Virus record (IMG/VR): IMGVR_UViG_3300035169_000077
Coordinates: 34,688 to 98,687 of that record
Source of the DNA: a virus
Length of the DNA stretch: 64,000 bases
Direction: 5' to 3' (one strand)
In this document: in pieces, positions 2,370 through 19,284 of the stretch
Layout of the letters: each line of letters begins with the position of its first letter
How positions within the stretch are numbered: position 1 is the stretch's first letter
Program-made: the position numbers and the translations under genes
The notes under the pieces: generated by a model
Told to the model about the DNA's origin: nothing
Database searches by the model: none
Seen by the model: only the letters and a program-made list of their open reading frames with translations

Positions 2370-2665
2370 GCCGGCAAGCCTAGGCGTTGAGAAGCGCGTT
2401 CGGACGGCTGCGACTGCGGGAAGAAGGCGGCACCGGGTGAGCCTCGCTGACGTCCTGTGGGCCGGTGCCGCTCTCCTGGCCCTCGCGGTCCTGACGGCGG
2501 TAGCCGACTGGCTCCGGGGTGGCCTGTGACCGCGAACGGCCAGTGGTGGCTCTGCCCCAACGAGCCGCGATGCCCTCACGCCGCCGTGGTGCACGACATC
2601 GAGGACTTCGACGACGAAACCCCGCGCTGCTGCGCCGAGGGCTGCGACTGCGGAAAGCGGGCCTA

Positions 2666-2896
2666 GTGTCGATCCTCCGGGACCTGTTCGGCCCGGGGAC
2701 GTGGGGTGCGGGTGGCAATCTCGCCGCCGCGCCGATCCTCGCGGTGATCAGCGGCGGCGTGGCGTGGCTGCTGCGGCACAAGATCGGCCGGGGACTCGCC
2801 GCCTGGTGGGCAAAGCACCACGGGCCGCACGCCATAGCCCAGCACCGTGAGGCGCTGCGGCAGCACGAGGAAGCCAAGCGGAGGGACGCGCAGTGA
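2666..2896 (+). CDS. Small membrane protein, candidate holin
   Basis: One hydrophobic segment plus basic tail; overlaps the endolysin start (GTGA). Confidence 0.5.
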   Translation: MSILRDLFGPGTWGAGGNLAAAPILAVISGGVAWLLRHKIGRGLAAWWAKHHGPHAIAQHREALRQHEEAKRRDAQ

Positions 2897-3651
2897 GCAT
2901 CACGATGTTCGACACGATCACCGAGTCCGCGTGGCCATCTGACCCGCAGGCGGTCCTCGGCTACGTGGACGGCCACGTAGGGGACCAGCCGGACTGGGCT
3001 TATGTTCAGCACCGGTTCCCGAACGCCTTCCACCTGTCGATCGCCCTGGACCCCGCGCACGACGCGATGGCCCTGGACATCGAGACGGGGGCGGCTTCCC
3101 CGTCGTCGGCGGTCGCCTGGTACGAGCGGCAGAAGGCCAGGGGTGTCGCCCGCCCTTGCCTGTACGCCTCCGCCTCCCTGATGGAGGCCACCATCATCCC
3201 GGTAGTCCGCGCGGCCAGGTTCCCCCGTGACCAGGTGCGGCTGTGGTCGGCGCACTACACGCACTCGGCTCACATTTGCGGGCCGTCATCCTGCGGGCTG
3301 ACGTCGGTCGCCGTGGACGGCACCCAGTGGACTGACCGGGCGTACGGCCGGAACCTCGATCAGTCGCTCCTGCTCGGCGACTTCTTCGGCGCGGCACCCA
3401 AGCCCCCGCCCGGGCATCCGTCGCCGTGGCCCGCTGGCACGGTACTCCGTGAGGGGGACTCCGGCGCTGCCGTCCGCGCCTTGCAGACGGCACTGAGCGA
3501 CTCCGGCATCAGGGGAGTACGGGGCATCACCGTTGACTCGGTGTTCGGGCAGCAGACCCTGACCGCTGTCCGGAACTTCCAGGCGGATAAGGGGCTGGCG
3601 GTAGACGGCATCGCCGGGCCTCAGGTTCGCGCAGCTCTCGGCATCCGGTGA
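2893..3651 (+). CDS. Endolysin: glycoside hydrolase (GH25-like) domain plus peptidoglycan-binding domain
   Basis: ALDIETG, CLYAS, LWSAHY, GTQWT; C-terminal LREGDSGAAVRALQ...FG..T..AVRNFQ...GLAVDGIAGP. Confidence 0.85.
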   Translation: MSITMFDTITESAWPSDPQAVLGYVDGHVGDQPDWAYVQHRFPNAFHLSIALDPAHDAMALDIETGAASPSSAVAWYERQKARGVARPCLYASASLMEATIIPVVRAARFPRDQVRLWSAHYTHSAHICGPSSCGLTSVAVDGTQWTDRAYGRNLDQSLLLGDFFGAAPKPPPGHPSPWPAGTVLREGDSGAAVRALQTALSDSGIRGVRGITVDSVFGQQTLTAVRNFQADKGLAVDGIAGPQVRAALGIR

Positions 3652-3932
3652 TCCCCGCCGCCGAGCGCGTCCTGGTCCAGCTGTGGTGGACGGACGCGAC
3701 GAACGTCGCCGGAGGCTGGCACGACGCCGAAGACCTCGGCGAGTTCGCCACTAACGGCGCATGGGAGTGCTCAAACACCGGCTGGCTGGTCCATGAGGAC
3801 GAGAAGTGCTACGTGCTGGCCGGGCGCATGACCGACGACGGGCGCAACGTCGGCCTCATCGAGCGGATCCCCAAGGCGGCGGTAACCCGAAGGGCCGACT
3901 TCACCAGGCCGCAAGCTGGGGAGGCGCGCTGA
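3648..3932 (+). CDS. Hypothetical phage protein
   Basis: Translationally coupled to neighbours; W-x-DA...GW pattern. Confidence 0.7.
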   Translation: MIPAAERVLVQLWWTDATNVAGGWHDAEDLGEFATNGAWECSNTGWLVHEDEKCYVLAGRMTDDGRNVGLIERIPKAAVTRRADFTRPQAGEAR

Positions 3933-4498
3933 TGACCGGAATCCCGCTCCGGATCGCCGAGCCGACAGGCCGCTACCAGCGGAGGCTCCGCCGGTTCACC
4001 TACGGGTCGAAGTCGGAATGCCCCGGATACCGGTACGGCCATGACGGGTCCGCCGTGATCGGCGAGGTACCCGGGGCTGAGCATGAGCCGGTTCGCGGCG
4101 ACAGCTGGCCGCACGACGATCCCCGCTGGCCTGCCGCGTGCGAGCGGTGCGGCCACCAGTTCGCGGACGCCGATGAGTGGCAGCGCAGCGACGACGAGGT
4201 GTTCAGGCTCCCCGACGGCACTGAGTTCGCCTTCACGGGCTCCCTCGGGATGGTCGCGCCTCCCGGGACGATGGTCCGCGCCGCCTGGTACGACGGGCAC
4301 GCTGGCCAGCCGGGCGAGTCCTGGCTGATCGCGCTCCCCGACGGCGGCGACTGGATAACCACCCAGGTCGCCAAGGGCGGGGGCTTCTGGACCGTGACGG
4401 GCACGGCACCGAACCTGACCGCGACGCCCTCGATCTTCCACAACGCCCCAACTGGGTGGCACGGCTGGCTGAGGGAAGGGGAGCTGGTTAGCGCATGA
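3932..4498 (+). CDS. Hypothetical protein, DUF6527-like C-terminus
   Basis: WTVTGTAPNLTATPSI...WHGWLREG; TGATG coupling. Confidence 0.6.
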   Translation: MTGIPLRIAEPTGRYQRRLRRFTYGSKSECPGYRYGHDGSAVIGEVPGAEHEPVRGDSWPHDDPRWPAACERCGHQFADADEWQRSDDEVFRLPDGTEFAFTGSLGMVAPPGTMVRAAWYDGHAGQPGESWLIALPDGGDWITTQVAKGGGFWTVTGTAPNLTATPSIFHNAPTGWHGWLREGELVSA

Positions 4499-4935
4499 GG
4501 CAGGCAGCACCGGATCCGGCACCGCTCGCCTACCTGGTGGAGCGGCTCTCGTACCGGCCCGGCTGGACGTTCAAGCTCGCGGACATCGACCGGGGGCAGG
4601 GCAGCGAGGGGCTGACCCTGATCATCACCACGCGCGGGTACGACAGCTACCACCCCGGTCGCGGCGAGAACTACCGGGTCAATCACTACATGCCAGTGCC
4701 GCCGGCCGCGTTCGATCACCGATCCTGGCAGCGATGGCTATTCGACCAGCTCCTCCTTGTCGAGCGGCACGAGGCCATGGAGTTCTTCCGCGTGCACGAC
4801 TCCCCGGGCAGCGAGCATGTCGTCCGCCCCTATGCGCCGTCGCATGGGCCGGGAAATGACCCGTACATCGTCCGGGAGATCGGCACCGGCATGGACCAGC
4901 GGACGTCGTTCCGGGGCGACGTCAACCCCCCGTGA
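4495..4935 (+). CDS. Hypothetical phage protein
   Basis: ATGA overlap with the upstream gene. Confidence 0.7.
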   Translation: MRQAAPDPAPLAYLVERLSYRPGWTFKLADIDRGQGSEGLTLIITTRGYDSYHPGRGENYRVNHYMPVPPAAFDHRSWQRWLFDQLLLVERHEAMEFFRVHDSPGSEHVVRPYAPSHGPGNDPYIVREIGTGMDQRTSFRGDVNPP

Positions 4936-5177
4936 CCATCACCCTGGCCCGCCGGGTAGCAGGCCCCGAGGACCTGGAACTACCGGGCGACTACTGCGGG
5001 CCGCTCCCTGAGCTTGAGGGCCCTGACCTCACCCCGTCCGGCAGGACCGCCGTGTGGCTGGTGGCCCCGGACGGGTCACCGGTACGGCTCGCCTCCCCGC
5101 CGTGGGAGTTCACCGAGGCTGAAGACGGGTCGCTGGAGATCACCGTGGCGGCCGGAACGCCCTCCCCGGCAGCCTGA
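4932..5177 (+). CDS. Hypothetical protein
   Basis: GTGA overlap; end of rightward run. Confidence 0.55.
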   Translation: MTITLARRVAGPEDLELPGDYCGPLPELEGPDLTPSGRTAVWLVAPDGSPVRLASPPWEFTEAEDGSLEITVAAGTPSPAA

Positions 5178-5448
5178 GCCAGGACGATCTCGCGCCCGCA
5201 GCAGATGGCGTGATCTTGCAGCGGAAGCCGGCCGGAGCGCGTCGACCACCAGCCGCGCGGATGAGTGCCCGCCGTGAACTCGATCCCGCACGCCGCCACC
5301 CGCACTTCCCCGCGAAAGCCGCCGTCGAAGCGGCGCACGATCAGGTGAGCAGATGTCGGCAACGCGGGGCCACCCGGATACATGGGGCTGAGGCCCATCG
5401 CCCACAGGTTGGGATCGTCGCTCATCCCGCCAGCCTAGGGCTACCTCG

Positions 5449-5555
5449 CAGGCCGGGCGGGACTTGAACGCCGCTCCTCAGGGCCTGGGCCGCCTCCGCT
5501 AGCGCGCTATCGCTCGGGCGCGGTTACCTGCGCTCTGCCGTTGAGCTACCGGCCT
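5449..5555 (-). ncRNA. tRNA-like RNA with expanded anticodon domain
   Basis: Acceptor AGGCCGG/CCGGCCT, TA, D arm GCTC-AACGGCA-GAGC, T loop TTCAAGT; ~44 nt between CAGG and CCTG instead of a 7-nt loop; no CCA. Confidence 0.75.
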
Positions 5556-5578
5556 GAGCCGACCCTACCCGGCCGGGG

Positions 5579-5992
5579 CTAGTCGACTAGCTTTCTTGAG
5601 GCCTCGCGTCGCCGCCATTCGCAGCGCCGCAGCGTGTGCTTGCGGAACAGCCGGTCCTCCCAGATGGCCCGCGCCCAGCGCCGCTCTCCCTTAACAGGCG
5701 ATTCAGGCACGGCGACCACGTCCGTCCCGCACGACTCGCACCGGCTCGGCCCTTCCCTCTCGCCAGTGCGGATGAGGAACGGCGCGGACTCGGCCAGCGA
5801 CGCCAGGTCCTCGGCGACCAGCGGCCCCTTGACGGGGTCAGCCTCCAGTTGCCGGAGCACGGCGGCGTAGTCCACGGCCGGGATGATCCCCTGCTCCAGG
5901 CCAGAGCGCAGGAACACGCCTCCTGGCGGGGCGTCCGGGTCCACGACGATCTTGAAGCCACTGAAAGCCCAGCCCTCATCCCCGGCGGTCAC
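5579..5992 (-). CDS. Hypothetical protein with CxxC
   Basis: ORF; TACGTT 6 nt upstream of GTG. Confidence 0.6.
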   Translation of the reverse strand: MTAGDEGWAFSGFKIVVDPDAPPGGVFLRSGLEQGIIPAVDYAAVLRQLEADPVKGPLVAEDLASLAESAPFLIRTGEREGPSRCESCGTDVVAVPESPVKGERRWARAIWEDRLFRKHTLRRCEWRRREASRKLVD

Positions 5993-6023
5993 CCGCCCAA
6001 CGTACCCCGGGAGGTGACGGCGC

Positions 6024-7406
6024 TTGACCTCACTCGTTTACGTCACCATCACGGGCCAGTTCCTCGGCGGCGATGAGACGCCCCTCTCCGGAACGGTGAC
6101 CTTCACCGCAAGCCAGGCTGTCTACTCGGCAGGCCAGGAGATCGTCACCCCTGATGTCCCGGTCGCCGCGCAGATCACGGACGGCGTCCTCCTGGCCGAG
6201 TCGGGCGGCGCGCTGCAGCTGCTCGCGACGGACCAGAGCGGCCTGACGTTCCTGACCTTGAGCGGGTTCTTCTACTGGACCGTGCGGGTAGTGGCCGGCG
6301 GAGTCACTGAGCCGTCATGGTCGTTCGGCCTGCCGTCGTCGCCATCGAGCGTCGACTTGTTCGCCCTCGCGAACAGGCCCTTCACCGCAGGCGGCGTCAC
6401 CTCGGTCACGGCAGCGGACACCTCGGTTGTCATCGGGGGAACGGGCACGGCCCCGACGGTGCGGACGGGCACGCTGGACGTGATCGCCACCCAGCATGCG
6501 CCGGCGGGTAACTGGTCGAACAACAGCCACAAGATCACGTCGCTGGCAAACGGGGCCTCCGCGCAGGACGCGGCGGCGTTCGGGCAGGTCCCCACCTCAG
6601 CGGGGAGCATCGGCGGCCTCCTCGCCGCAAGCAACCTCTCCGACGTCGCCAATGCCGGCACGGCCCGGACCAACCTGGGCCTGGGCAGCGCGGCGACTCA
6701 GGCTAGCAGCGCGTTCGACGCGGCCGGGGCGGCCTCCGCAGTGCTGGCGCTTGCCGCGCTGCGCGCCAATAACCTGTCGGACCTGGCCAGCGCGCCGACG
6801 GCCCGGACCAACCTGGGCCTCGGCGGGGCGGCCGTGATCGGCGTCCCGGTCTCCATCGCCAACGGCGGCACCGGGCAGACTGCCCAGCAGGCGGCACTCG
6901 ACGCGCTCGCGGGAGCGGTCACCACGGCCCAGTTCCTGCGGGGCAACGGCACGCACGTCGTACTGGGCGCGATCCAGGCCACCGACGTCCCCACCCTCAA
7001 CCAGAGCACCACGGGGACGGCCGCCAACTTCACCGGCGGGGCGACCGTGCCCGCCTATGTGGCCCCGCACGTGGCGACGCTCACCGACGCGGCGACGGTC
7101 GCGGTCAACGCGGCCCTCGGCAACGACTACCGGCTCCTCACCACGAGCGGGGTAGGCGCATCGCGGACAATCGGCGCACCCTCTAGCCCGGTCGACGGGC
7201 AGGCCATCACGATCGACGTCCAGCAGGCATCCAGCGGGGGCCCGTACACGGTCACCTGGGCATCAGGGGCGGGCGGCTACTCGTTCGGCACCGACGGCGC
7301 GCCGACGCTGAGCACCGGTGCTAACGCGGTCGACACGATCGGCTTCCGCTACCACGCCGGCCTCGGCAAGTGGATATGCCTCGGGTGGAAATTGGGATTC
7401 GCGTGA
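6024..7406 (+). CDS. Tail fibre / minor tail protein
   Basis: GGAGG RBS; Gly/Ala/Thr-rich; two NLSD(V/L)A...ARTNLGLG fibre repeats; ANGGTG motif. Confidence 0.8.
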   Translation: MTSLVYVTITGQFLGGDETPLSGTVTFTASQAVYSAGQEIVTPDVPVAAQITDGVLLAESGGALQLLATDQSGLTFLTLSGFFYWTVRVVAGGVTEPSWSFGLPSSPSSVDLFALANRPFTAGGVTSVTAADTSVVIGGTGTAPTVRTGTLDVIATQHAPAGNWSNNSHKITSLANGASAQDAAAFGQVPTSAGSIGGLLAASNLSDVANAGTARTNLGLGSAATQASSAFDAAGAASAVLALAALRANNLSDLASAPTARTNLGLGGAAVIGVPVSIANGGTGQTAQQAALDALAGAVTTAQFLRGNGTHVVLGAIQATDVPTLNQSTTGTAANFTGGATVPAYVAPHVATLTDAATVAVNAALGNDYRLLTTSGVGASRTIGAPSSPVDGQAITIDVQQASSGGPYTVTWASGAGGYSFGTDGAPTLSTGANAVDTIGFRYHAGLGKWICLGWKLGFA

Positions 7407-8104
7407 CGATCAGCTTCCCCGCGACCAGCGGCGACCACAGCGTCACGGCGGAGGCGAATCCGCTGGTGATCGCGCCGCCGGCGAATGTCGCCAACGGCGA
7501 CTTGCTCGTCGCATGGGTCATCGCCAGGACCGGGATCAGCAGCGCGCCGGGCAGCTGGACGGCGCTGCAGTCGTTCACCACCAACGGGACGTTCGCGGCG
7601 TACTCGCTGAAGGTCCCGACCGCGTCGGCGCTGCCCGCTAACTGGACGTGGACCCCGGCGTCGGCGCGGGCGAGCGTGATCATCCAGCGGGTGACCGGCA
7701 CCGACCTCACCGCCTCCGTCACCGTCGGCGGGACCTGCGGGGCGGGCACTGACGCCGGGTTCGGGACGACGTACTCGTCATTCCTGCCGATGCAGCTGCC
7801 CGGCATCACGCCACCGGACGCGTGGGCCGCCTGCGTCGGGACGTTCTTCACCGGGGACGCCAACACTCCCTCGGCGGACCTCGTGCCGGGCGGGACGCTG
7901 CTGGCGACGGCGACGACCACGAGCGCCGGGGCTGGCCGGTCGTCGTCGGGGATCTACGGCGCTGTCGCGGCCGGGCCGACCGGCACGATCGTGTGCGCGA
8001 ACGACTGGCCGGGCGCGCCCGGCGGCCAGGACGGCATCCTGCTCGGCTTCACCGCCGTGCGCGCCCCCGTGAAGAGCGGGCTGCTGATGGCGGGGGTCAT
8101 ATGA
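7403..8104 (+). CDS. Minor tail / fibre-associated beta-rich protein
   Basis: Coupled at both ends; NGDLLVAWV and GSW motifs typical of actinophage minor tail proteins. Confidence 0.6.
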   Translation: MTISFPATSGDHSVTAEANPLVIAPPANVANGDLLVAWVIARTGISSAPGSWTALQSFTTNGTFAAYSLKVPTASALPANWTWTPASARASVIIQRVTGTDLTASVTVGGTCGAGTDAGFGTTYSSFLPMQLPGITPPDAWAACVGTFFTGDANTPSADLVPGGTLLATATTTSAGAGRSSSGIYGAVAAGPTGTIVCANDWPGAPGGQDGILLGFTAVRAPVKSGLLMAGVI

Positions 8105-10641
8105 CGAGCCTGTCGTACGTCACGATCACTGGCCAGTTCACCGGGGGCGGCAACACGCCCCTGTCGGGCAGCGTGACCTTCACGCCGAGTCAGGCTGTCT
8201 ACGCCGGGGGCGTCCCCGTCGTCACTCCCGGGGTGCCGATTACCGCCCAGGTGATCGCCGGGCAGCTGTTGTCCGAGCACGGGGGGCCGCTCCGGCTCCT
8301 GGCGACCGACAACGACGGCCTGACCTTCCTGACCCTGACGGGCTTTTTCTGGTGGTCGGTTGAGGCGGTCATCGGCGGCGTCACTCAGCCGGCGTGGTCT
8401 TTCGGCTTGCCTTCCAGCCCGACAAGCGTCGACTTGTTCGCCCTCGCGAACACGCCCTTCGGTGGAGGCGGCGGCGGCAACCTCCCGCCCGCGATCATCA
8501 CCTCCAGCGGCCCCCTTGGCCCTGAGTCAACGGCGATCCTCGCCGCCCCCGGCCTGACCGTCTCGCTGCCCGACGCGACCGCGGCACCGGGCAGGGCGAT
8601 CACGGTCAAGCTCGACTCGCCGTTCACCACCGGGACGGTCGAGACGATCAACGGGCAGCTCATCGACGGCTACCCCTCGTACCAGATGGCCGCCCGGTAC
8701 CAGTGGTGCACGCTCCAGTCGGACGGGACCAACTGGCAGGTCATCAGCGCCAAGCCCGGCGGCCTCCTGAGCATCCCCGTGCCAGTGCTGCCGGCCGGGA
8801 CCGCCAACGCGCCGTACAGCGCCCAGCTCACGGCCAGCGGCGGGTGGCCCGGGTACACGTGGAGCGTCAAGTCAGGGAGCCTGCCCGACGGCGTGACCCT
8901 GTCCACCTCAGGCGCCCTCTCAGGCACCCCGACAGTGGCGACGACCAGCGGCTTTACCGTCCAGGTGACCGACTCGATCGGCTCCATCGCGACGATCGCC
9001 CTGACTATCACGGTCGGCGGGGGCATCGTCCTCGTCCAGCAGGGCGCCGTGATTAACGCCTCGAACGGGGCCTCGGCGGCTCCCGTCTTCCTCAACGCCA
9101 CCGCGGCCGGGAACCTGCTCATCGCCCATGTCGGCGGCAACGGCTCCGGGGCCATCACCACGACCGCTTCCGGCTGGGTTGTCGTCGGCGCCGGCGGCCA
9201 TGCGATCGCCTACAAGGAGAACTGCGGGGCCGGCGAGACGCCTCCCGTCTTCTCTCGCGGCAGCACCAGCGACATGTGGGCGTACCTGGAGGAGTGGACC
9301 GGGGCCGCCACCTCAGGCGCGGCAGACCAGTCCGTGTCATCCTCCGCCGGGTCGTCGGCATGGACAGCGGTATTCCCGGCGCTGAGCACCGTGCCGGGGG
9401 AACTGCTGGCCTGCGCGGGCTACTGGAACGGCAGCAACACGGGCGGCAGCGTCGCGCTGACCAGCTTCCTCGACAACACCGGCGACACGATCACCGGCAC
9501 GTTCCTCCAGGGCGGGAATAGCTTCGGCCAGTACTTCGCCGGGGTCTCCGGGGTCGCCGGCCCGACCGGCAGCACGCATGACCAGGTCGGGATGACCCTC
9601 AGTGTCTTCGCGGGCGGCGACGGCACCCTGGTCTCGTTCCAGCCCGGCAACCAGGGGCCGCCCGGGAACCCCGTCGTCACCACCGCGTCCCCGCTGCCAT
9701 CAGCGTCCACGCTGCAGCCGTACACGGTGATCCTCGCCGCAGAAGACGGGGTCCCGCCCTACACGTGGTCGATCGCGTCCGGCACGCTCCCGGCAGGCCT
9801 CGCGCTCTCCGCGGACGGCGTCATCTCCGGCTCCCCCGTGACCGCCGCCGTGTACTCGTTCACCGTCCGGGTCACCGACAGCATCAGCGACTCCGGCACC
9901 ATGCCGCTGGGCCTCACGGTCGCGCAGACTCCCACCCCGACGTTCGTGACGTCGGCCTTCACGGAGGCCACCGGAAGCCGCAGCCAGCCGTATCCCGGCA
10001 TAGCCGCCATCACCGGGCCCACTCAGGACCCGACCGTCAACAACAACGTGTGGTCGCCGGTGACCGGGACGGCGTCCGAGCTATTCGTGGTCGATCCCAC
10101 CCGCTTCTGGGTAGTCGCCAACATGCCACCCGGGAACACTCAGGTGCTGGCATTCCAGAGCAATGACCTGCGGTTCGGCGAGTTGCCGCTCAGCAGCTTC
10201 ACTAAGGTCGTCAGCTCGTTCAGCGAGGAAATGAACCCGACTCCCGGCACGCAAGCCTGGGCGGCCTATGACATCTGGCTGAATAACTGGAACAACGAGA
10301 TCATGATCCATCATGATCTCGCCAGGTTCAATCCTTACGACTCCACGCCCCTGGCCAGGGGAATCTCGTTCGGCGGGAGCAACGGCGTGCCAGTCCTGGC
10401 CTGGGACCTGCACCTTTACGGCACCAGTGAATATGTCTGGCAGCCAGCGAATAACGCGTTCAATATCCAGTCGGGCAGCGTTGACATTTTGCAAATGCTT
10501 CAGTGGATGATTGACAATGCGTTCCTGCCGGCGGTTAACACCTTCACGGCAGTCGGCTACGGCTGGGAGATGTGCAGCACCGGCGGCCTTGATGAATTCT
10601 TCCAGGTGACCGCTTTCACCCTTGACGCCGAGTACGGCTAA
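8101..10641 (+). CDS. Receptor-binding/tail protein with two putative Ig (He_PIG-like) domains and a C-terminal GH12-like domain
   Basis: N-terminal ~120 aa paralogous to the 6024 protein; two 'YTWS..SG.LP.G..LS..G..SG.P' repeats; NNNVW, AAYDIWL, EIMI, GWE motifs. Confidence 0.8.
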   Translation: MTSLSYVTITGQFTGGGNTPLSGSVTFTPSQAVYAGGVPVVTPGVPITAQVIAGQLLSEHGGPLRLLATDNDGLTFLTLTGFFWWSVEAVIGGVTQPAWSFGLPSSPTSVDLFALANTPFGGGGGGNLPPAIITSSGPLGPESTAILAAPGLTVSLPDATAAPGRAITVKLDSPFTTGTVETINGQLIDGYPSYQMAARYQWCTLQSDGTNWQVISAKPGGLLSIPVPVLPAGTANAPYSAQLTASGGWPGYTWSVKSGSLPDGVTLSTSGALSGTPTVATTSGFTVQVTDSIGSIATIALTITVGGGIVLVQQGAVINASNGASAAPVFLNATAAGNLLIAHVGGNGSGAITTTASGWVVVGAGGHAIAYKENCGAGETPPVFSRGSTSDMWAYLEEWTGAATSGAADQSVSSSAGSSAWTAVFPALSTVPGELLACAGYWNGSNTGGSVALTSFLDNTGDTITGTFLQGGNSFGQYFAGVSGVAGPTGSTHDQVGMTLSVFAGGDGTLVSFQPGNQGPPGNPVVTTASPLPSASTLQPYTVILAAEDGVPPYTWSIASGTLPAGLALSADGVISGSPVTAAVYSFTVRVTDSISDSGTMPLGLTVAQTPTPTFVTSAFTEATGSRSQPYPGIAAITGPTQDPTVNNNVWSPVTGTASELFVVDPTRFWVVANMPPGNTQVLAFQSNDLRFGELPLSSFTKVVSSFSEEMNPTPGTQAWAAYDIWLNNWNNEIMIHHDLARFNPYDSTPLARGISFGGSNGVPVLAWDLHLYGTSEYVWQPANNAFNIQSGSVDILQMLQWMIDNAFLPAVNTFTAVGYGWEMCSTGGLDEFFQVTAFTLDAEYG

Positions 10642-11101: not shown

Positions 11102-11145
11102 AGAGAGGCCCCGGTCACCTGTGGGTGGCCGGGGCCTCTCTTTTT
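11102..11145 (+). terminator. Intrinsic terminator
   Basis: ~18-bp stem AGAGAGGCCCCGGTCACC/GGTGGCCGGGGCCTCTCT plus T run. Confidence 0.85.
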
Positions 11146-11309: not shown

Positions 11310-12677
11310 TTATCCTCGCTCGGCCAGCCAGCGGAGCGCCCCGGCCTCATCCCCGAACTCCCCGGCATCCTGTGCCTCCAGGGCCTCGGCGAGGATGGGC
11401 TTGAACGACGGCCCCGGCTTCATCCCCGCCGCGATCAGGTGGTCCCCGGTCAGCAGTCCCTTCGCGGGGCGTTCCTCAACCTTCAGGTCCCGGCCCAGGT
11501 CGAACCACGCGCCTGCCGTGCTCCACGCGTCCGGGTCGCCGCGCCCCTTCGCGTCGGCCGCGCACACAAGCGCGAGTTCGGTCAGGGTCGCGGGCTCCAG
11601 CCTGCGCACCAGCCGCCGCACCGCCGGCTTCGTCGGCCGCCCGAAGCAGTTCATGTGCTCCCGGATCAGCGGGACGATGCGGGCGATGATGCCCTCAGGG
11701 CAGCCGATCGACCGGAGGAACGCCGTCGCAGGCTCTACGCCGGCCTCCGCGTGGCCATGGGAGGTGATCCGGCCCTCGGTGAGCTGGCTGTGAGTGACCT
11801 TGCCGACGTCGTGCAAGAGCGCGGCGAAGACGATGACCAGCCGGTCTGTTCCGGTCAGGCCCGCCTCATCGGCAAGCCGGGCAGCCTGGTCAGCGGCTAG
11901 CCCGGCGTGGGTCCACACGTCGCCCTCCGGGTGCCATTCGGGGTCCTGCTCGACGCCGTGCATGTACGCGAGTTCGGGGTAGCGCGCGTCCCACCAGGTG
12001 TCATGCAGGACCGCCAGCGCCCGGCTGACGTGCGTGCCGCGCGTGCCGATCTTCTCCCACTCGCCCCAGATGCGCTCGGCCGGCAGTTCCCGGTACGAGC
12101 CCAGGAGATCCCGGCACAAGATGGCCGTCTCGGGGACCATGGTGAAGCCGAACCGGGCCGCGAACTGGACGCCGCGCAGGACGCGCAGCGGGTCCTCGCT
12201 GAACGCGTCCGACGTGTGGCGCAGGATCCCGGCCCGGATGTCGGCCAGGCCCCCGTGAGGGTCGATCAGCCCCCCCGTTGCCGGGTCGAGCATGATCGCG
12301 TTCATCGTGAAGTCCCGCCGGGCGCTTGCCTGGGCGAAGCTGATGTCCATGTCCGGCGAGACCTCGAAGCCCCGGTGGCCCGCGCTGACCTTCCGCTCGC
12401 GGCGGGGGACGTTGATGTCCAGGTCGGTGTCCCCGGCGCGGACCTTCAGCACGCCGTAGCTCTTGCCGACCTCATCCACGCGGCCTGCGCGGCTGAGGGC
12501 TTCCGTCAGCGCGGCGAACGTCAGGCCGTAGACCTCAACGTCAACGTCCTTGCTCTCGGCCCCGCCCATGAGGGCATCACGCACGAAGCCGCCTACGAGC
12601 AGCGGGTGGCCGCCAGCTTGGCGGATCGCGGCCAGCACTCGCTCAACGTCCGGCGACAGGCGGGGCAGCGTGATCAC
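11310..12677 (-). CDS. cca: Class II tRNA nucleotidyltransferase (CCA-adding enzyme family) with HD domain
   Basis: VGGFVRD, DVD, RRDFTMNA, EDPLRVLR, HPEGDVWTH...LLHDVGK, C-terminal GDHLI..G.KPGP; GTGA overlap with upstream gene. Confidence 0.9.
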   Translation of the reverse strand: MITLPRLSPDVERVLAAIRQAGGHPLLVGGFVRDALMGGAESKDVDVEVYGLTFAALTEALSRAGRVDEVGKSYGVLKVRAGDTDLDINVPRRERKVSAGHRGFEVSPDMDISFAQASARRDFTMNAIMLDPATGGLIDPHGGLADIRAGILRHTSDAFSEDPLRVLRGVQFAARFGFTMVPETAILCRDLLGSYRELPAERIWGEWEKIGTRGTHVSRALAVLHDTWWDARYPELAYMHGVEQDPEWHPEGDVWTHAGLAADQAARLADEAGLTGTDRLVIVFAALLHDVGKVTHSQLTEGRITSHGHAEAGVEPATAFLRSIGCPEGIIARIVPLIREHMNCFGRPTKPAVRRLVRRLEPATLTELALVCAADAKGRGDPDAWSTAGAWFDLGRDLKVEERPAKGLLTGDHLIAAGMKPGPSFKPILAEALEAQDAGEFGDEAGALRWLAERG

Positions 12678-13387
12678 GGGCGGTCCCAGTAGGCGCGGCG
12701 GACTTCTTGCAGCCACGCCTCGGCGGCAGCCTCGTCCGGGCGATCCGGGAGCACGCCGGGCTTGTCGAATGCCTCCTCGGCGCGGGCGAGCACGTCCCTC
12801 GCCACCTCTACGCCCCGCGTGGCGACGTCCTCGCCGAACTCACGGCACGCCGCAGCCTGCGCAAGGCTCAGGCGCACGCTCAGCCGGCCGCTGACGTGCA
12901 GTGCCGTCCCCTGGTGGATCAGCCTCCACAGATGGCGGGCGTGCTTCTCGGTACGCTTCCTGGTGTCGGCCGAGAACGACCCGTCACCCCGGTTCTCCAG
13001 CCGGCGGAACTGCTGGGTGGCATACCCGAGGTAGGCGTTCCGGACCGCCGGCCGCGACAGGAGCGACTTGCGGATATCTACCAGCAGGTAACCCTCGCGC
13101 GTCGCCGTCTCGTACCTGTCAAGCCACAGCAGCTCCGCGACGGTCGGATTGCACTTCAGGAGGAGCGCGGCCAGCTTTCCCGCCTCGTGGTACGTCGCGT
13201 CCGGCTTGGTGCTGACCCGGCTCGCGGCCTTCCCGAGCGGCGGGTGCAGCCCGTGGAACGCCACGGTGGGCGCGGCGTAGCAGCCGATCCGGTCCACGTC
13301 GGAGTCCTCGGTCGCCAGCCCGTATGCCGTTGAGCCGTTGATGCCCGCGAGGAGCACGTTCGGCGGCGGCTTCATCTCAGCGTCCAC
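12674..13387 (-). CDS. Pol-beta superfamily nucleotidyltransferase (PF10127 / RlaP-like)
   Basis: GSTAYGLATEDSDVD, CNPTVAELLW, AYLGYA..Q, KHARHLWRL. Confidence 0.85.
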   Translation of the reverse strand: MDAEMKPPPNVLLAGINGSTAYGLATEDSDVDRIGCYAAPTVAFHGLHPPLGKAASRVSTKPDATYHEAGKLAALLLKCNPTVAELLWLDRYETATREGYLLVDIRKSLLSRPAVRNAYLGYATQQFRRLENRGDGSFSADTRKRTEKHARHLWRLIHQGTALHVSGRLSVRLSLAQAAACREFGEDVATRGVEVARDVLARAEEAFDKPGVLPDRPDEAAAEAWLQEVRRAYWDRP

Positions 13388-13569
13388 GCTTTCCCCTCTT
13401 CCGTCGCGCCCCGTCCCGCTTCCTGGCATGGTGCCCGGGTCGCGGGGCGGGGCGCACCTCGTTTTAGCCAGGGGCCTAACAGCGGCACTCCCGGTCGGCT
13501 AGTCTCCTCCTGCGTGAGTTGAATGCTCCCGGCCGCGTCCCACGCCACGGCCGGGCGCCTACCAGGCTT

Positions 13570-14412
13570 TTAGCCGGCGTTGACCTGGACGGCGGTTACC
13601 GTCAGGTCATCAAGGACGTAGGTGCCGGCACCCTGGTCGCTGTCGTAGCCGAACGCGTAAACGTGGAGCGTCGTGTCCTGCGCCAGCGTGACCACGGTCG
13701 ACCCGCTGAAGTAGGAGTCGATCGTCGTGTGCCCTCCGGACTCCAGCGCCCCGCTTCCCACGTTGAGCAGGTCCCCGGTGAAGGACGAGTTCTTGGCCTC
13801 GTCGTAGGCGAAGAACTGGGGGAACACCTGCACGTCGCTGGTCATCAGCGGCGTCGCCTTGGCGGTCATGGACAGCAGGTAGGTGCCCGCCTTCAGGCTG
13901 ACCGTCCCGACTTCCGTGGAGTTCGCGACGAACCCGCCGCCCGTGGCCACGCTCGCCACGCTGCCCAGGTCATGAGCGCCCGCGCTGACGACCCCGGACG
14001 GCCCTTGCGGTCCCGCCGCGCCGTCCGCCCCGTCCGCGCCAGCCGGGCCAGCCTGCCCCTGGCTGCCGGTTGCGCCAGCCGGTCCCTGCGCTCCTGCCGC
14101 CCCGGTCGCTCCCTTCGCCCCCGCGGGCCCTGCCGGCCCGGCCGAGTCCCACGCCAGCGCCGTCGTCCCCGCCGGGCACCCGCCCGACGCCTGGTAGTCC
14201 GCAGCGTGCCAGTACACCCGGGTCAGCACCCGGGCGGACGGGGTACGCGAGTTCGCCACGCACCCGTACAACGTCGCCGACGTCGCCTTCGGCGGGGTGA
14301 CCGCGCTCGTGCTCGCAGACGCCGCGGTCATCAGCCCGAACGCCGCAGCGCTCACCGCCACGCCCGTCACGACCGCTACGGCCCACGGCCGCCTGATCCA
14401 TCCGACCCTCAT
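13570..14412 (-). CDS. Secreted collagen-like protein
   Basis: N-terminal signal-like hydrophobic stretch; run of Gly-X-Y triplets; AAAGGG upstream. Confidence 0.8.
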   Translation of the reverse strand: MRVGWIRRPWAVAVVTGVAVSAAAFGLMTAASASTSAVTPPKATSATLYGCVANSRTPSARVLTRVYWHAADYQASGGCPAGTTALAWDSAGPAGPAGAKGATGAAGAQGPAGATGSQGQAGPAGADGADGAAGPQGPSGVVSAGAHDLGSVASVATGGGFVANSTEVGTVSLKAGTYLLSMTAKATPLMTSDVQVFPQFFAYDEAKNSSFTGDLLNVGSGALESGGHTTIDSYFSGSTVVTLAQDTTLHVYAFGYDSDQGAGTYVLDDLTVTAVQVNAG

Positions 14413-15951: not shown

Positions 15952-16028
15952 CATACCAATCCGGTATGCGATGCAAGACTCTTGGAGTCGCGACTGAAAT
16001 GGTCGCGCGAGCATACCGACTTGGTATA
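15952..16028. promoter_or_regulatory. Two palindromic operators between divergent HTH genes
   Basis: CATACC-N5-GGTATG (15952-15968) and CATACC-N5-GGTATA (16012-16028). Confidence 0.75.
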
Positions 16029-16038
16029 TCGTCCGGGG

Positions 16039-16530
16039 GTGACCCCACCGCACCCCGACGTGCTCCGCATAGGCGAGAACGTCCGCATAGCCCGGGAGCG
16101 CAAGGGCCTGTCCCAGGCCGCGCTCGCCGAGGAGATGCGCGCCCGCGGCTTCACCGCATGGCAGCAGCCCGCCGTGTATAAGACCGAGAAGGGCGTCCGC
16201 GAGCCCAGCGGCCGGGAGATGGCAGCCCTCGCCGCGATCCTCGGCACCACGATTGAGCGGTTCTTCTGGCTCCAGGGGGAGGCCGCCGAGTCCGACGCCG
16301 CAGACGCCGCCATCGTCGCCGTCCGCCAGTCATGGCAGGGCGCCTCCGACGCTGTCCTGCGCCTGGAGGCCGCGCTAGCCTCGGGTCGGCACCGGCTCGC
16401 GCAGGCGAAGGCCAGCAAGTACAAGCGGGTACGCGAGGTCGCCGGGGAGCTTGAGGCGGAACTCGGCGAGTCCACCCTGGAGGCCGCCGTAGGCGACGGC
16501 CTCGCCCGGCTCGAGGACGGGGACACCTGA
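16039..16530 (+). CDS. XRE-family repressor
   Basis: IGENVRIARERKGLSQAALA...VYKTEKGVREP; coupled to integrase (TGATG). Confidence 0.8.
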   Translation: MTPPHPDVLRIGENVRIARERKGLSQAALAEEMRARGFTAWQQPAVYKTEKGVREPSGREMAALAAILGTTIERFFWLQGEAAESDAADAAIVAVRQSWQGASDAVLRLEAALASGRHRLAQAKASKYKRVREVAGELEAELGESTLEAAVGDGLARLEDGDT

Positions 16531-18203
16531 TGGGGTACGCGGAGCTCGTCCGGTCGCCGAGGGGGAACTACTGGCGCGCCCGGTTCAAGGGAGCGGACGG
16601 CAAGCTCGTGACCGTCGTTGACGAGGCCGGCGCCGTCCTCCGGTACGACGGGAAGCGCAAGGCCAAGAAGGCGGCAGACGACCGGGAGAAGGACGCCCGC
16701 CAGGGCCGGTGGCATGACCCGGCAGCGGGGATGATGCTCGTCAAGCCGTGGGCGCAGGAATGGTACGCGGGCCTGAGCCTCGCGCCGAAGACCATGGCCA
16801 ACATCAAGAGGCACCTGGAGCATCACATCATCCCGTTCTTCGGCGAGGACGAGCTGAGAGCGGTCGACGCCGCGCGGATCGCCGAGTGGAAGGCGGAGGA
16901 GAAGGCCGCGGGGATGTCGCCGAACAGCATCAGGACGTGGCACGGCACCCTGCACACGCTGCTAGAGGACGCCAGGCTGACCGGGAGGATCAGCGTCAAC
17001 CCGGCGACGGCCAGGCGCGGCCGGGGACGGCGGGACGGCGGGGCGCGAAGGTCGCAGGTACAGCAGGAGCGCGTCATCACGTCACCCCTCGGCATCCTGC
17101 TGATCGCCGAGCGGATGTCGGTCCTGTCCGGCCGCGATGACGAGTTCGCCATGGTGGAGGCGGCCTACGGCTGCGCCCTGCGCCTCGGCGAGCTGACCGG
17201 CCTCGAGGTGCCGTCCGTCCGGGCGGGCGGCCTCAACCCCCGTAACCCGCTCCGCAAGGTCGCCGGCGAGCTGCGGGACGAGGCCATGCGAGTGGAATGG
17301 CAGCTTACCGAGGTTGAGGGGGAGCTGCTGCGGGAGCGGCCGAAGAACGGCTCCACCGGCGACCTTGACCTGCCCCCGTACCTGTCCCGGCTGATCGGGG
17401 AGCATGTTGCCGCGGCCGGCCCGCGGGAGTGCCCGTGCCACGGGACCGTCCACGCGTTCCGGGGGATGGGCGCGGCGAGCGCGAGGCCCGTGGTGCCCTT
17501 GCGGGTCGTCGCGGGGTACGCGGGCGTCTCGGAGGCCGCGGCGTACGTGGCGCTCGGCGGCAAGGGGCGGGTGTCGGACGCGACCCGCGAGAAGGTGGCG
17601 GCGGCGGCCCGGGAGGTCGGGTGGGTGCGGCCGGCGCGCCTGGACGGCCCGGCATGGCACTGGCGGCAGTCGGCGTTCGAGGCGATGTTCACCGCCGCGG
17701 TGTCGGGCTGGCTTCCGCCGGACGCGCCGCGCCCGCGCCGGCCGGTGCCGCTGGCGGGGGAGTGGCCCGGGACGCGGCTGCGCGGGCGCAACGCCCAGGG
17801 GCGGGCGTCGCTGCGGTGGGAGCCGGTCGCGGAGGGGATGACCCCGCACGGGCTGCGCCACTCGCTGAAGACCAGGATGGAGGAGGCCGGGATACCGGAG
17901 GTCGCCTCCGAGGCCCGGCTGCGGCACGAGATCCCCGGGGTGTCCGGCGCCTACCGGCACGTGACCCCCGAGATGCGCGCCCAGGTGACCCGGCTGCTAC
18001 AACAGGACTGGGAGGCGGCGCTGGACGAGCGGCTCGCGATGTCGCCCCGGTCGCCCGTCGCGGTGCTCGGCCGGCTGCTCCAGGAGCGGGCTGAGGCCCG
18101 CAAGCCCCGCCTTGTCTCCAGTGCGTCTCCAGAAGCAGCAGGGCCGGCTTCCCTCCCGAGGGTGGAAACCGGCCCTGACCTGCGTCGGGGTGACTGGATT
18201 TGA
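16530..18203 (+). CDS. int: Tyrosine integrase with internal LacI-type HTH
   Basis: LRLGEL, PKNG, HGLRH, RLRH, AYRH catalytic motifs; LRVVAGYAGVSEAAAYVALGGKGRVSDATREKV insert. Confidence 0.9.
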   Translation: MGYAELVRSPRGNYWRARFKGADGKLVTVVDEAGAVLRYDGKRKAKKAADDREKDARQGRWHDPAAGMMLVKPWAQEWYAGLSLAPKTMANIKRHLEHHIIPFFGEDELRAVDAARIAEWKAEEKAAGMSPNSIRTWHGTLHTLLEDARLTGRISVNPATARRGRGRRDGGARRSQVQQERVITSPLGILLIAERMSVLSGRDDEFAMVEAAYGCALRLGELTGLEVPSVRAGGLNPRNPLRKVAGELRDEAMRVEWQLTEVEGELLRERPKNGSTGDLDLPPYLSRLIGEHVAAAGPRECPCHGTVHAFRGMGAASARPVVPLRVVAGYAGVSEAAAYVALGGKGRVSDATREKVAAAAREVGWVRPARLDGPAWHWRQSAFEAMFTAAVSGWLPPDAPRPRRPVPLAGEWPGTRLRGRNAQGRASLRWEPVAEGMTPHGLRHSLKTRMEEAGIPEVASEARLRHEIPGVSGAYRHVTPEMRAQVTRLLQQDWEAALDERLAMSPRSPVAVLGRLLQERAEARKPRLVSSASPEAAGPASLPRVETGPDLRRGDWI

Positions 18204-19210: not shown

Positions 19211-19284
19211 TGGCGCGAGCCGGATTTGAACCGGCGACCTACGGGTTATGAGCCCGCCGAGCTACCGAGCTGCTCCATCGCGCT
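19211..19284 (-). tRNA. tRNA-fMet (CAT), CCA not encoded
   Basis: Full cloverleaf; A1:C72 mismatch; GGG/CCC anticodon stem; loop CTCATAA; 3' end A-CGG. Confidence 0.93.

Follow-up and report, generated by a model that had tools for sequence, protein, structure and literature searches.

The RlaP family (PF10127) of nucleotidyltransferases, the prediction of which reportedly goes back to Burroughs and Aravind 2016, owes its name to an association with RNA ligases. In bacteria such as Pseudomonas the protein is encoded in RtcB-RlaP-RtcA operons and is predicted to restore nucleotides at 3'-OH ends; it adds one or two nucleoside monophosphates to a 3'-OH of RNA, not to a 3'-phosphate, and its preferred substrate is the end created by a break in a tRNA (PMC12776372). 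A hG[GS] motif together with three aspartates is its strictly conserved signature (PMC12776372). Phages possess the family as well, NrdC.11 of T4 being a member (PMC12776372), and both RlaP and CCA enzymes are listed as RNA-repair tools of phages (PMC7824862). Here we analyzed bases 34688-98687 of the 98,687-bp IMG/VR viral record IMGVR_UViG_3300035169_000077 (64,000 nucleotides, in the following the window, to which all positions refer). On its minus strand a RlaP gene overlaps a gene for a CCA-adding-type nucleotidyltransferase that has an HD domain. We favor the view that the two genes form a mobile cassette, the products of which heal and rebuild 3' ends of RNA, with tRNA as the most likely substrate.

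Compared by family and motifs, the locus shares with the bacterial RtcB-RlaP-RtcA operons the PF10127 domain, the hG[GS] motif with three aspartates and the predicted restoration of nucleotides at 3'-OH ends, and two relatives of the window phage have RtcB beside the pair. It differs in that the fixed partner of RlaP is the CCA/HD enzyme and not a ligase, and in that an RtcA/RtcR context is absent. The eponymous association with an RNA ligase was not seen in the window genome, where neither RtcB nor PF09414 was found; it was seen in the relatives G005 and G012 (RtcB) and in a fusion of RlaP with RLIG1. Phage T4, which counters the anticodon nuclease PrrC with Pnkp and Rnl1, offers a second likeness, i.e. 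phage-borne enzymes that heal and restore damaged tRNA. In contrast to T4, it would here be the HD domain that does the healing, probably at the acceptor 3' end and not in the anticodon loop. Finally, the same two families are co-located in the repair toolkits of large lytic phages (PMC7824862) and in the rV5-like coliphage Av-05. Those phages are large and tRNA-rich, and their CCA and RlaP genes are separated by other genes including an annotated 'hydrolase'. In the cultured Av-05 an annotated tRNA nucleotidyltransferase gene and a RlaP-family gene (PF10127, 4.3e-13) are separated by 1.8 kb within a single block of co-directional genes. The locus described here, on the other hand, is a minimal unit of two overlapping genes, and its carrier is a 99-kb actinophage that has an integrase and a single tRNA.

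The gene for the RlaP-family RNA 3'-end nucleotidyltransferase (12674-13387, minus strand) encodes 237 amino acids from a GTG start codon; a Shine-Dalgarno-like GAGGGG was read directly about 5 nucleotides upstream (13393-13398, minus strand). The protein matched PF10127 with an E-value of 3.5e-18 and 66.6 bits, exceeding the gathering score of 23, and it also matched phrog_388. The G+C content at third codon positions (GC3) of the gene was 0.90. In an alignment of 10 homologues the catalytic residues G18-S19 (hG[GS]), D30, D32 and D63 were invariant. An AlphaFold2 model from the 10-row alignment showed a helical C-terminal half with block means of the predicted local distance difference test (pLDDT) of 65 to 92; the N-terminal 65 residues were below 50 and the nucleotidyltransferase core was poor. 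A RlaP profile found no match among the sequences of solved structures.

The partner gene (11310-12677, minus strand; 455 amino acids, GTG start) codes for a class II CCA-adding-type nucleotidyltransferase with an HD phosphohydrolase domain. Pfam assigned a PolyA_pol head (2e-16) and an HD domain (4.2e-10), the latter also seen as HDIG (3.3e-8). The top NCBIfam model was NF008137, 'multifunctional CCA addition/repair protein' (1.4e-56, model positions 5-351 of 409), and phrog_2244, tRNA nucleotidyltransferase, was matched with 2.8e-67. When 7 homologues were aligned the motifs GGxVRD, DxD, RRD..T.N, (E/D)DPLR and R..E..K (A, B, D, E) were all present, and their residues were invariant except for the first residue of motif D, which is D in one protein. 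The HD metal ligands H249, H289-D290 and D375 were likewise invariant. With the multifunctional Cca of E. coli (NF008137) the protein has in common the head-neck-body plus HD architecture, the four intact head motifs (A, B, D, E) and the metal ligands H..HD..D. Unlike E. coli Cca it is encoded by a phage, always stands beside RlaP, scores lower against NF008137 (see below) and has its nearest cellular kin elsewhere. The closest cellular relatives of the phage CCA/HD enzyme (44-50% identical; loci L162-L238) were overwhelmingly Verrucomicrobia (Opitutaceae), not Actinobacteria, and the gene was probably not acquired from the host lineage. In PADLOC neither RlaP nor the CCA protein matched a defense system, the sole matches being a trivial similarity of Cas3-HD to the HD domain.

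The two reading frames share the tetranucleotide GTGA at 12674-12677 (minus strand, read directly), which supplies the stop codon TGA of RlaP and the start codon GTG of the CCA gene and implies translational coupling. The original prediction of two translationally coupled nucleotidyltransferases with intact catalytic motifs was therefore borne out by the coordinates, the overlap, the Pfam and NCBIfam matches and the invariant residues.

Relatives were sought in viral contigs and in one genome per prokaryote species. A RlaP gene was directly adjacent in all ten contigs with a CCA protein 62-76% identical to that of the window (eight viral contigs and two contigs binned into metagenome-assembled genomes, MAGs). 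The two genes were spaced by gaps of 21-36 nucleotides between high-scoring segment pairs, or the called open reading frames (ORFs) overlapped by 4-13 nucleotides; as in the window the overlap was 4 nucleotides in L007 and L013, and it was 13 nucleotides in L001. In a tree of CCA proteins the ten relatives and the window protein formed one clade with a support of 99% in the Shimodaira-Hasegawa-like approximate likelihood ratio test (SH-aLRT). Mapped onto this tree, the order of the genes was RlaP to CCA in five rows and CCA to RlaP in five others. At least two flips of the order were forced by well-supported branches, e.g. between the sisters L029 and L030, which have opposite orders. Furthermore, the window genes flanking the pair had almost no counterparts beside the pair in the relatives. 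The flips of gene order and the unshared flanks indicate that RlaP and the CCA gene move together, and we regard them as a mobile two-gene cassette.

More distant pairs, independent of this clade, were also detected. The 127-kb viral contig L075 has RlaP, a CCA-type enzyme and an RNA ligase in a row (2651-6611), the N-terminus of the ligase matching an OB-fold/tRNA_bind domain. RlaP with a CCA/HD enzyme was found on L197, a contig of a Planctomycetota MAG, and RlaP near a CCA-type enzyme without HD on L150 and L155.

Two complete relatives with the pair have irregular copies of one gene each. In G013, a complete, terminally repeated genome, matches to the CCA gene (L032:4001-5357) are split over two frames covering residues 6-50 and 65-454, which reflects a frameshift, an error in sequencing or the decay of this copy. 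The RlaP gene of G009 (IMGVR_UViG_3300049440_000308; L013:6387-6853) has an in-frame insertion of about 155 amino acids that leaves the ORF open (395 amino acids). The insert lies between two conserved blocks, is rich in arginine and glycine with an out-of-frame look, and may be a mobile insertion.

The repair role assigned to the cassette is based on the biochemistry of the RlaP family, RtcB neighbors, RlaP fusions and the literature. The RNA ligase RtcB adjoins the pair in two relatives, at L007:8106-9311 of G005 (Pfam match 6.9e-112) and at G012:C1:11178-12281; in G012 a tRNA-Pro gene lies between RtcB and the pair. Proteins 43-62% identical to the window RlaP were fused to a HAD_PNKP 3'-phosphatase, to an RLIG1 RNA ligase or to HD_4. 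Fusion of RlaP to an enzyme for freeing or sealing RNA ends has thus occurred repeatedly. That the two enzymes act as a unit in the repair of RNA or tRNA ends, as had been proposed from the window alone, gains support from the adjacency in ten out of ten relatives despite the flips, from the RtcB neighbors and from the fusions.

The fused homologues are P0001, P0004 and P0006, the RLIG1 fusion coming from Spirillospora. Two Actinomadura homologues, P0002 and P0005, bear long extensions without an assigned domain. A fusion of RlaP with a CCA enzyme was not found among the longer RlaP homologues, which is weak evidence with seven proteins scored as matches.

The HD domain of the CCA enzyme is the only phosphoesterase identified in the cassette. 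In the mechanism we propose it would strip the 2',3'-cyclic phosphate or 3'-phosphate left by a nuclease and thereby generate a 3'-OH. RlaP would then restore one or two nucleotides on the trimmed end, before the CCA head would rebuild the CCA tail. What the data show directly are the structure and family membership of the two genes, their intact motifs and their strict linkage; we infer which RNAs are acted on, in what order the steps occur and, as the benefit, an escape from tRNA-attacking toxins of the host or of competitors.

Several observations weigh against this interpretation. First, the CCA protein reached only 192 bits with NF008137, the equivalog cut-off of which is 451 bits. By this score it is a divergent relative of the NF008137 proteins and not an equivalog; hence specificity for CCA as opposed to the addition of A or poly(A) is not proven. 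Second, a CCA gene was within 4 kb in just 8 of the 74 RlaP-anchored viral loci, and in actinophage-like contigs RlaP was much more common than its CCA partner. The closest relatives of the window RlaP (74-75% identical), one of them in a complete 98-kb genome, had no CCA enzyme, so RlaP can do without this partner. In the RlaP tree CCA-linked rows were scattered, with 7 changes, at least two of which were forced. The dependence is one-sided: in this clade a CCA gene never occurs without RlaP, but RlaP often occurs without a CCA gene. Third, no kinase and no RtcB or PF09414 ligase was found in the genome of the window phage, which means that the phage alone cannot complete the repair of a break in the anticodon loop. 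The complete relatives G009 and G013 also yielded no RtcB or PF09414 ligase. The minimal cassette would therefore repair acceptor 3' ends only or would make use of a ligase of the host.

One may go a step further and consider the pair a self-sufficient pathway independent of any ligase, by which tRNA acceptor ends trimmed past the CCA tail would be rebuilt. The HD domain would clear the phosphate, RlaP would restore the discriminator or the last nucleotides of the acceptor stem and the CCA head would finish the tail. Actinophages would spread the cassette against immunity systems that attack the 3' ends of tRNAs, for instance nucleotidyltransferase toxins of the MenT/AbiE type or acceptor-stem nucleases. 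We put this forward tentatively, since in this extended form it is rather doubtful.

Concerning the benefit, a role of the cassette in counter-defense appears plausible. In mycobacteria an extra CCA enzyme, PcnA, suppresses the AbiE-family tRNA toxin MenT3 (PMC11541572). The likeness consists in the ability of an additional CCA enzyme to neutralize a toxin of tRNA 3' ends in an actinobacterium. Yet, PcnA is the host's own enzyme, and no such toxin has been linked to the window phage. Equally open is a benefit to the host by expression from the prophage. In that case the purpose of the pair would not be lytic counter-defense but the repair of host tRNAs that toxins from competitors or from superinfecting phages have damaged; the molecular mechanism would be the same and the beneficiary alone would differ. 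The position of the cassette is in line with such a role. It sits between the tail genes and a regulatory region with a helix-turn-helix (HTH) regulator (15982-16530, plus strand) beside a tyrosine integrase (16530-18203, plus strand; 557 amino acids, unusually long). On its other side it is bounded by a GC-rich hairpin of 18 bp (11102-11141) that a terminator scan detected in the gap separating the late plus-strand operon from the 3' terminus of the CCA gene. This hairpin is likely a terminator for the plus strand; that it also terminates the minus-strand transcript of the cassette is a guess. The RlaP homologue of the temperate mycobacteriophage CELFI is likewise located beside integrase and repressor, and G009 has the cassette together with an integrase homologous to that of the window. 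However, no homologue of the window integrase was found in G012, G013 and G005, which carry the cassette as well (G005 is a 41%-complete fragment). Taken together, a cassette for the benefit of the lysogen is possible, but we would not expect it to be the answer.

As a further alternative, the CCA enzyme could serve the maturation of the phage's own RNAs. The original prediction had listed two tRNA-shaped RNAs without encoded CCA in the window, and this was correct for one of them. The gene at 19211-19284 (minus strand) is a real tRNA-Met(CAT) of the initiator type, and the 98.7-kb record contains no other tRNA. The bases after it are CGG, so CCA is not encoded. Direct reading revealed as initiator features a mismatch of A1 and C72, A11:U24, an anticodon stem closed by three G:C pairs, and A73; G2:C71 and C3:G70 are retained. 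In bacterial initiator tRNAs C1 is opposite A72, whereas the window tRNA has A1 opposite C72. Compared over its full length with initiator tRNA genes of actinobacteria, the gene shows 85-88% identity. We also considered that it is merely the attP copy of a host tRNA gene, an idea that was set aside because no genome among 301 sampled showed an identical 3' half. It looks like an ordinary phage-borne tRNA, tied to the cassette only by the common accessory region.

The second RNA, 107 nucleotides at 5449-5555, was not recognized as a tRNA. ARAGORN at default settings made no call, no Rfam tRNA match was obtained up to an E-value of 10, and the element did not fold more stably than shuffled sequence (folding energy, z +0.9). 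Inspection by eye made out no more than a stem resembling an acceptor stem, a D arm and a motif like a T loop. The element was found neither in five related records nor by an exact 24-mer scan of viral contigs.

For the maturation of the phage's own CCA-less tRNA-fMet, and of the tRNA-like RNA, speak the missing CCA of the only tRNA in the genome and the frequent occurrence of CCA enzymes in tRNA-rich phages. Yet, the complete genomes G009 and G013 possess the pair and have 0 tRNAs. Where tRNA genes were close to the pair in other relatives they were of a different kind, tRNA-Pro at a distance of 270 nucleotides in G012 and tRNA-Trp at about 700 nucleotides in G014. Conversely, in G003 RlaP and three tRNAs, of which at least two are CCA-less, occur in the absence of a CCA enzyme. 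The absence of an encoded CCA is usual in the phage group, being observed in 5 of 6 tRNAs read (Met, Pro, Trp, Asn, Gly; the 3' end of tRNA-Cys of G003 was ambiguous), and it is normal in actinobacteria. In M. tuberculosis CCA is encoded in 13 of 45 tRNA genes and the CCA enzyme PcnA is essential, so actinobacterial hosts must add CCA to most of their tRNAs in any case (PMC11541572). Two parts of the original prediction were lost with these data. The wider kit with a replacement initiator tRNA and a decoy RNA did not withstand the co-occurrence check, given genomes with the pair that lack tRNAs (G009, G013), tRNA-Pro or tRNA-Trp in others and the failure to find the 107-nucleotide element again. 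Similarly, a missing CCA, being common in the group including a phage with RlaP and no CCA enzyme, is no pointer to a kit. Because tRNA maturation leaves the obligatory RlaP partner unexplained as well, we consider it highly improbable.

Likewise highly improbable is that the CCA-type enzyme is a poly(A) or oligo(N) polymerase which acts with RlaP to tag RNAs of host or phage for decay or stabilization: its head does match PcnB models (TIGR01942, 1.7e-25) and poly(A) polymerase structures, and class II motifs alone do not separate CCA enzymes from poly(A) polymerases, but the CCA/repair models are better by 30 orders of magnitude in E-value, an HD domain, characteristic of multifunctional Cca and intact here, lies outside the PcnB matches, and neighbors and fusions indicate healing and ligation of ends.

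What the healing of tRNA 3' ends by the cassette would add can be stated as follows. Both families were known already, and phages that have the two together had been described in the context of predicted RNA repair. New is, as far as the compared contigs tell, a strict, overlapping two-gene cassette that is independent of gene order, with one CCA/HD clade never seen without RlaP. Also new is that several complete genomes have the cassette without an RtcB or PF09414 ligase, and that its carriers are mid-sized actinophages with 0 to 1 tRNA, the window phage and G009 having an integrase in addition. tRNA is the target of many bacterial defenses and toxins, and the documented answers of phages are replacement tRNAs and the kinase/ligase repair of T4. 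A compact, mobile and ligase-free pair for the healing of 3' ends would, if true, be a third answer of phages. RlaP, the biological role of which is still open (PMC12776372), would then gain a defined partner and a defined lesion. The one-way dependence of the CCA clade on RlaP yields a concrete prediction, and related genes in cultured actinophages and Av-05-like coliphages make laboratory tests feasible.

The record in which the window is located is 94% complete according to CheckV and has a G+C content of 71%. Among sequencing runs, only DNA runs of soil metagenomes were listed as containing the window stretch, and no RNA run was. A megablast search of the first 25 kb of the window gave no match to deposited phages. 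Judged by base composition and the nearest homologues the host is taken to be actinobacterial. A GC3-based gene call produced a layout of the tailed-phage type, where plus-strand late genes extend to a tail-fiber-like gene (8101-10641) and are followed by a minus-strand block, the plus-strand HTH and integrase genes and a long minus-strand arm. The integrase contains a weak match to a LacI-type HTH (residues 327-366) between its N-terminal and catalytic parts, and its homologue in G009 is 50% identical. Directly upstream of the cassette a gene at 13570-14412 (minus strand) has a product whose N-terminus is hydrophobic and which contains collagen-like Gly-X-Y repeats. This product resembles phage tail fibers; the location of the gene on the minus strand outside of the late operon is odd.

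Finally, RlaP-family genes were present in the Gordonia phages Daredevil, DatBoi, Mollymur and Bantam, annotated as 'tRNA nucleotidyltransferase' or 'nucleotidyltransferase' depending on the GenBank record. For these genes the label 'tRNA nucleotidyltransferase' overstates present knowledge.

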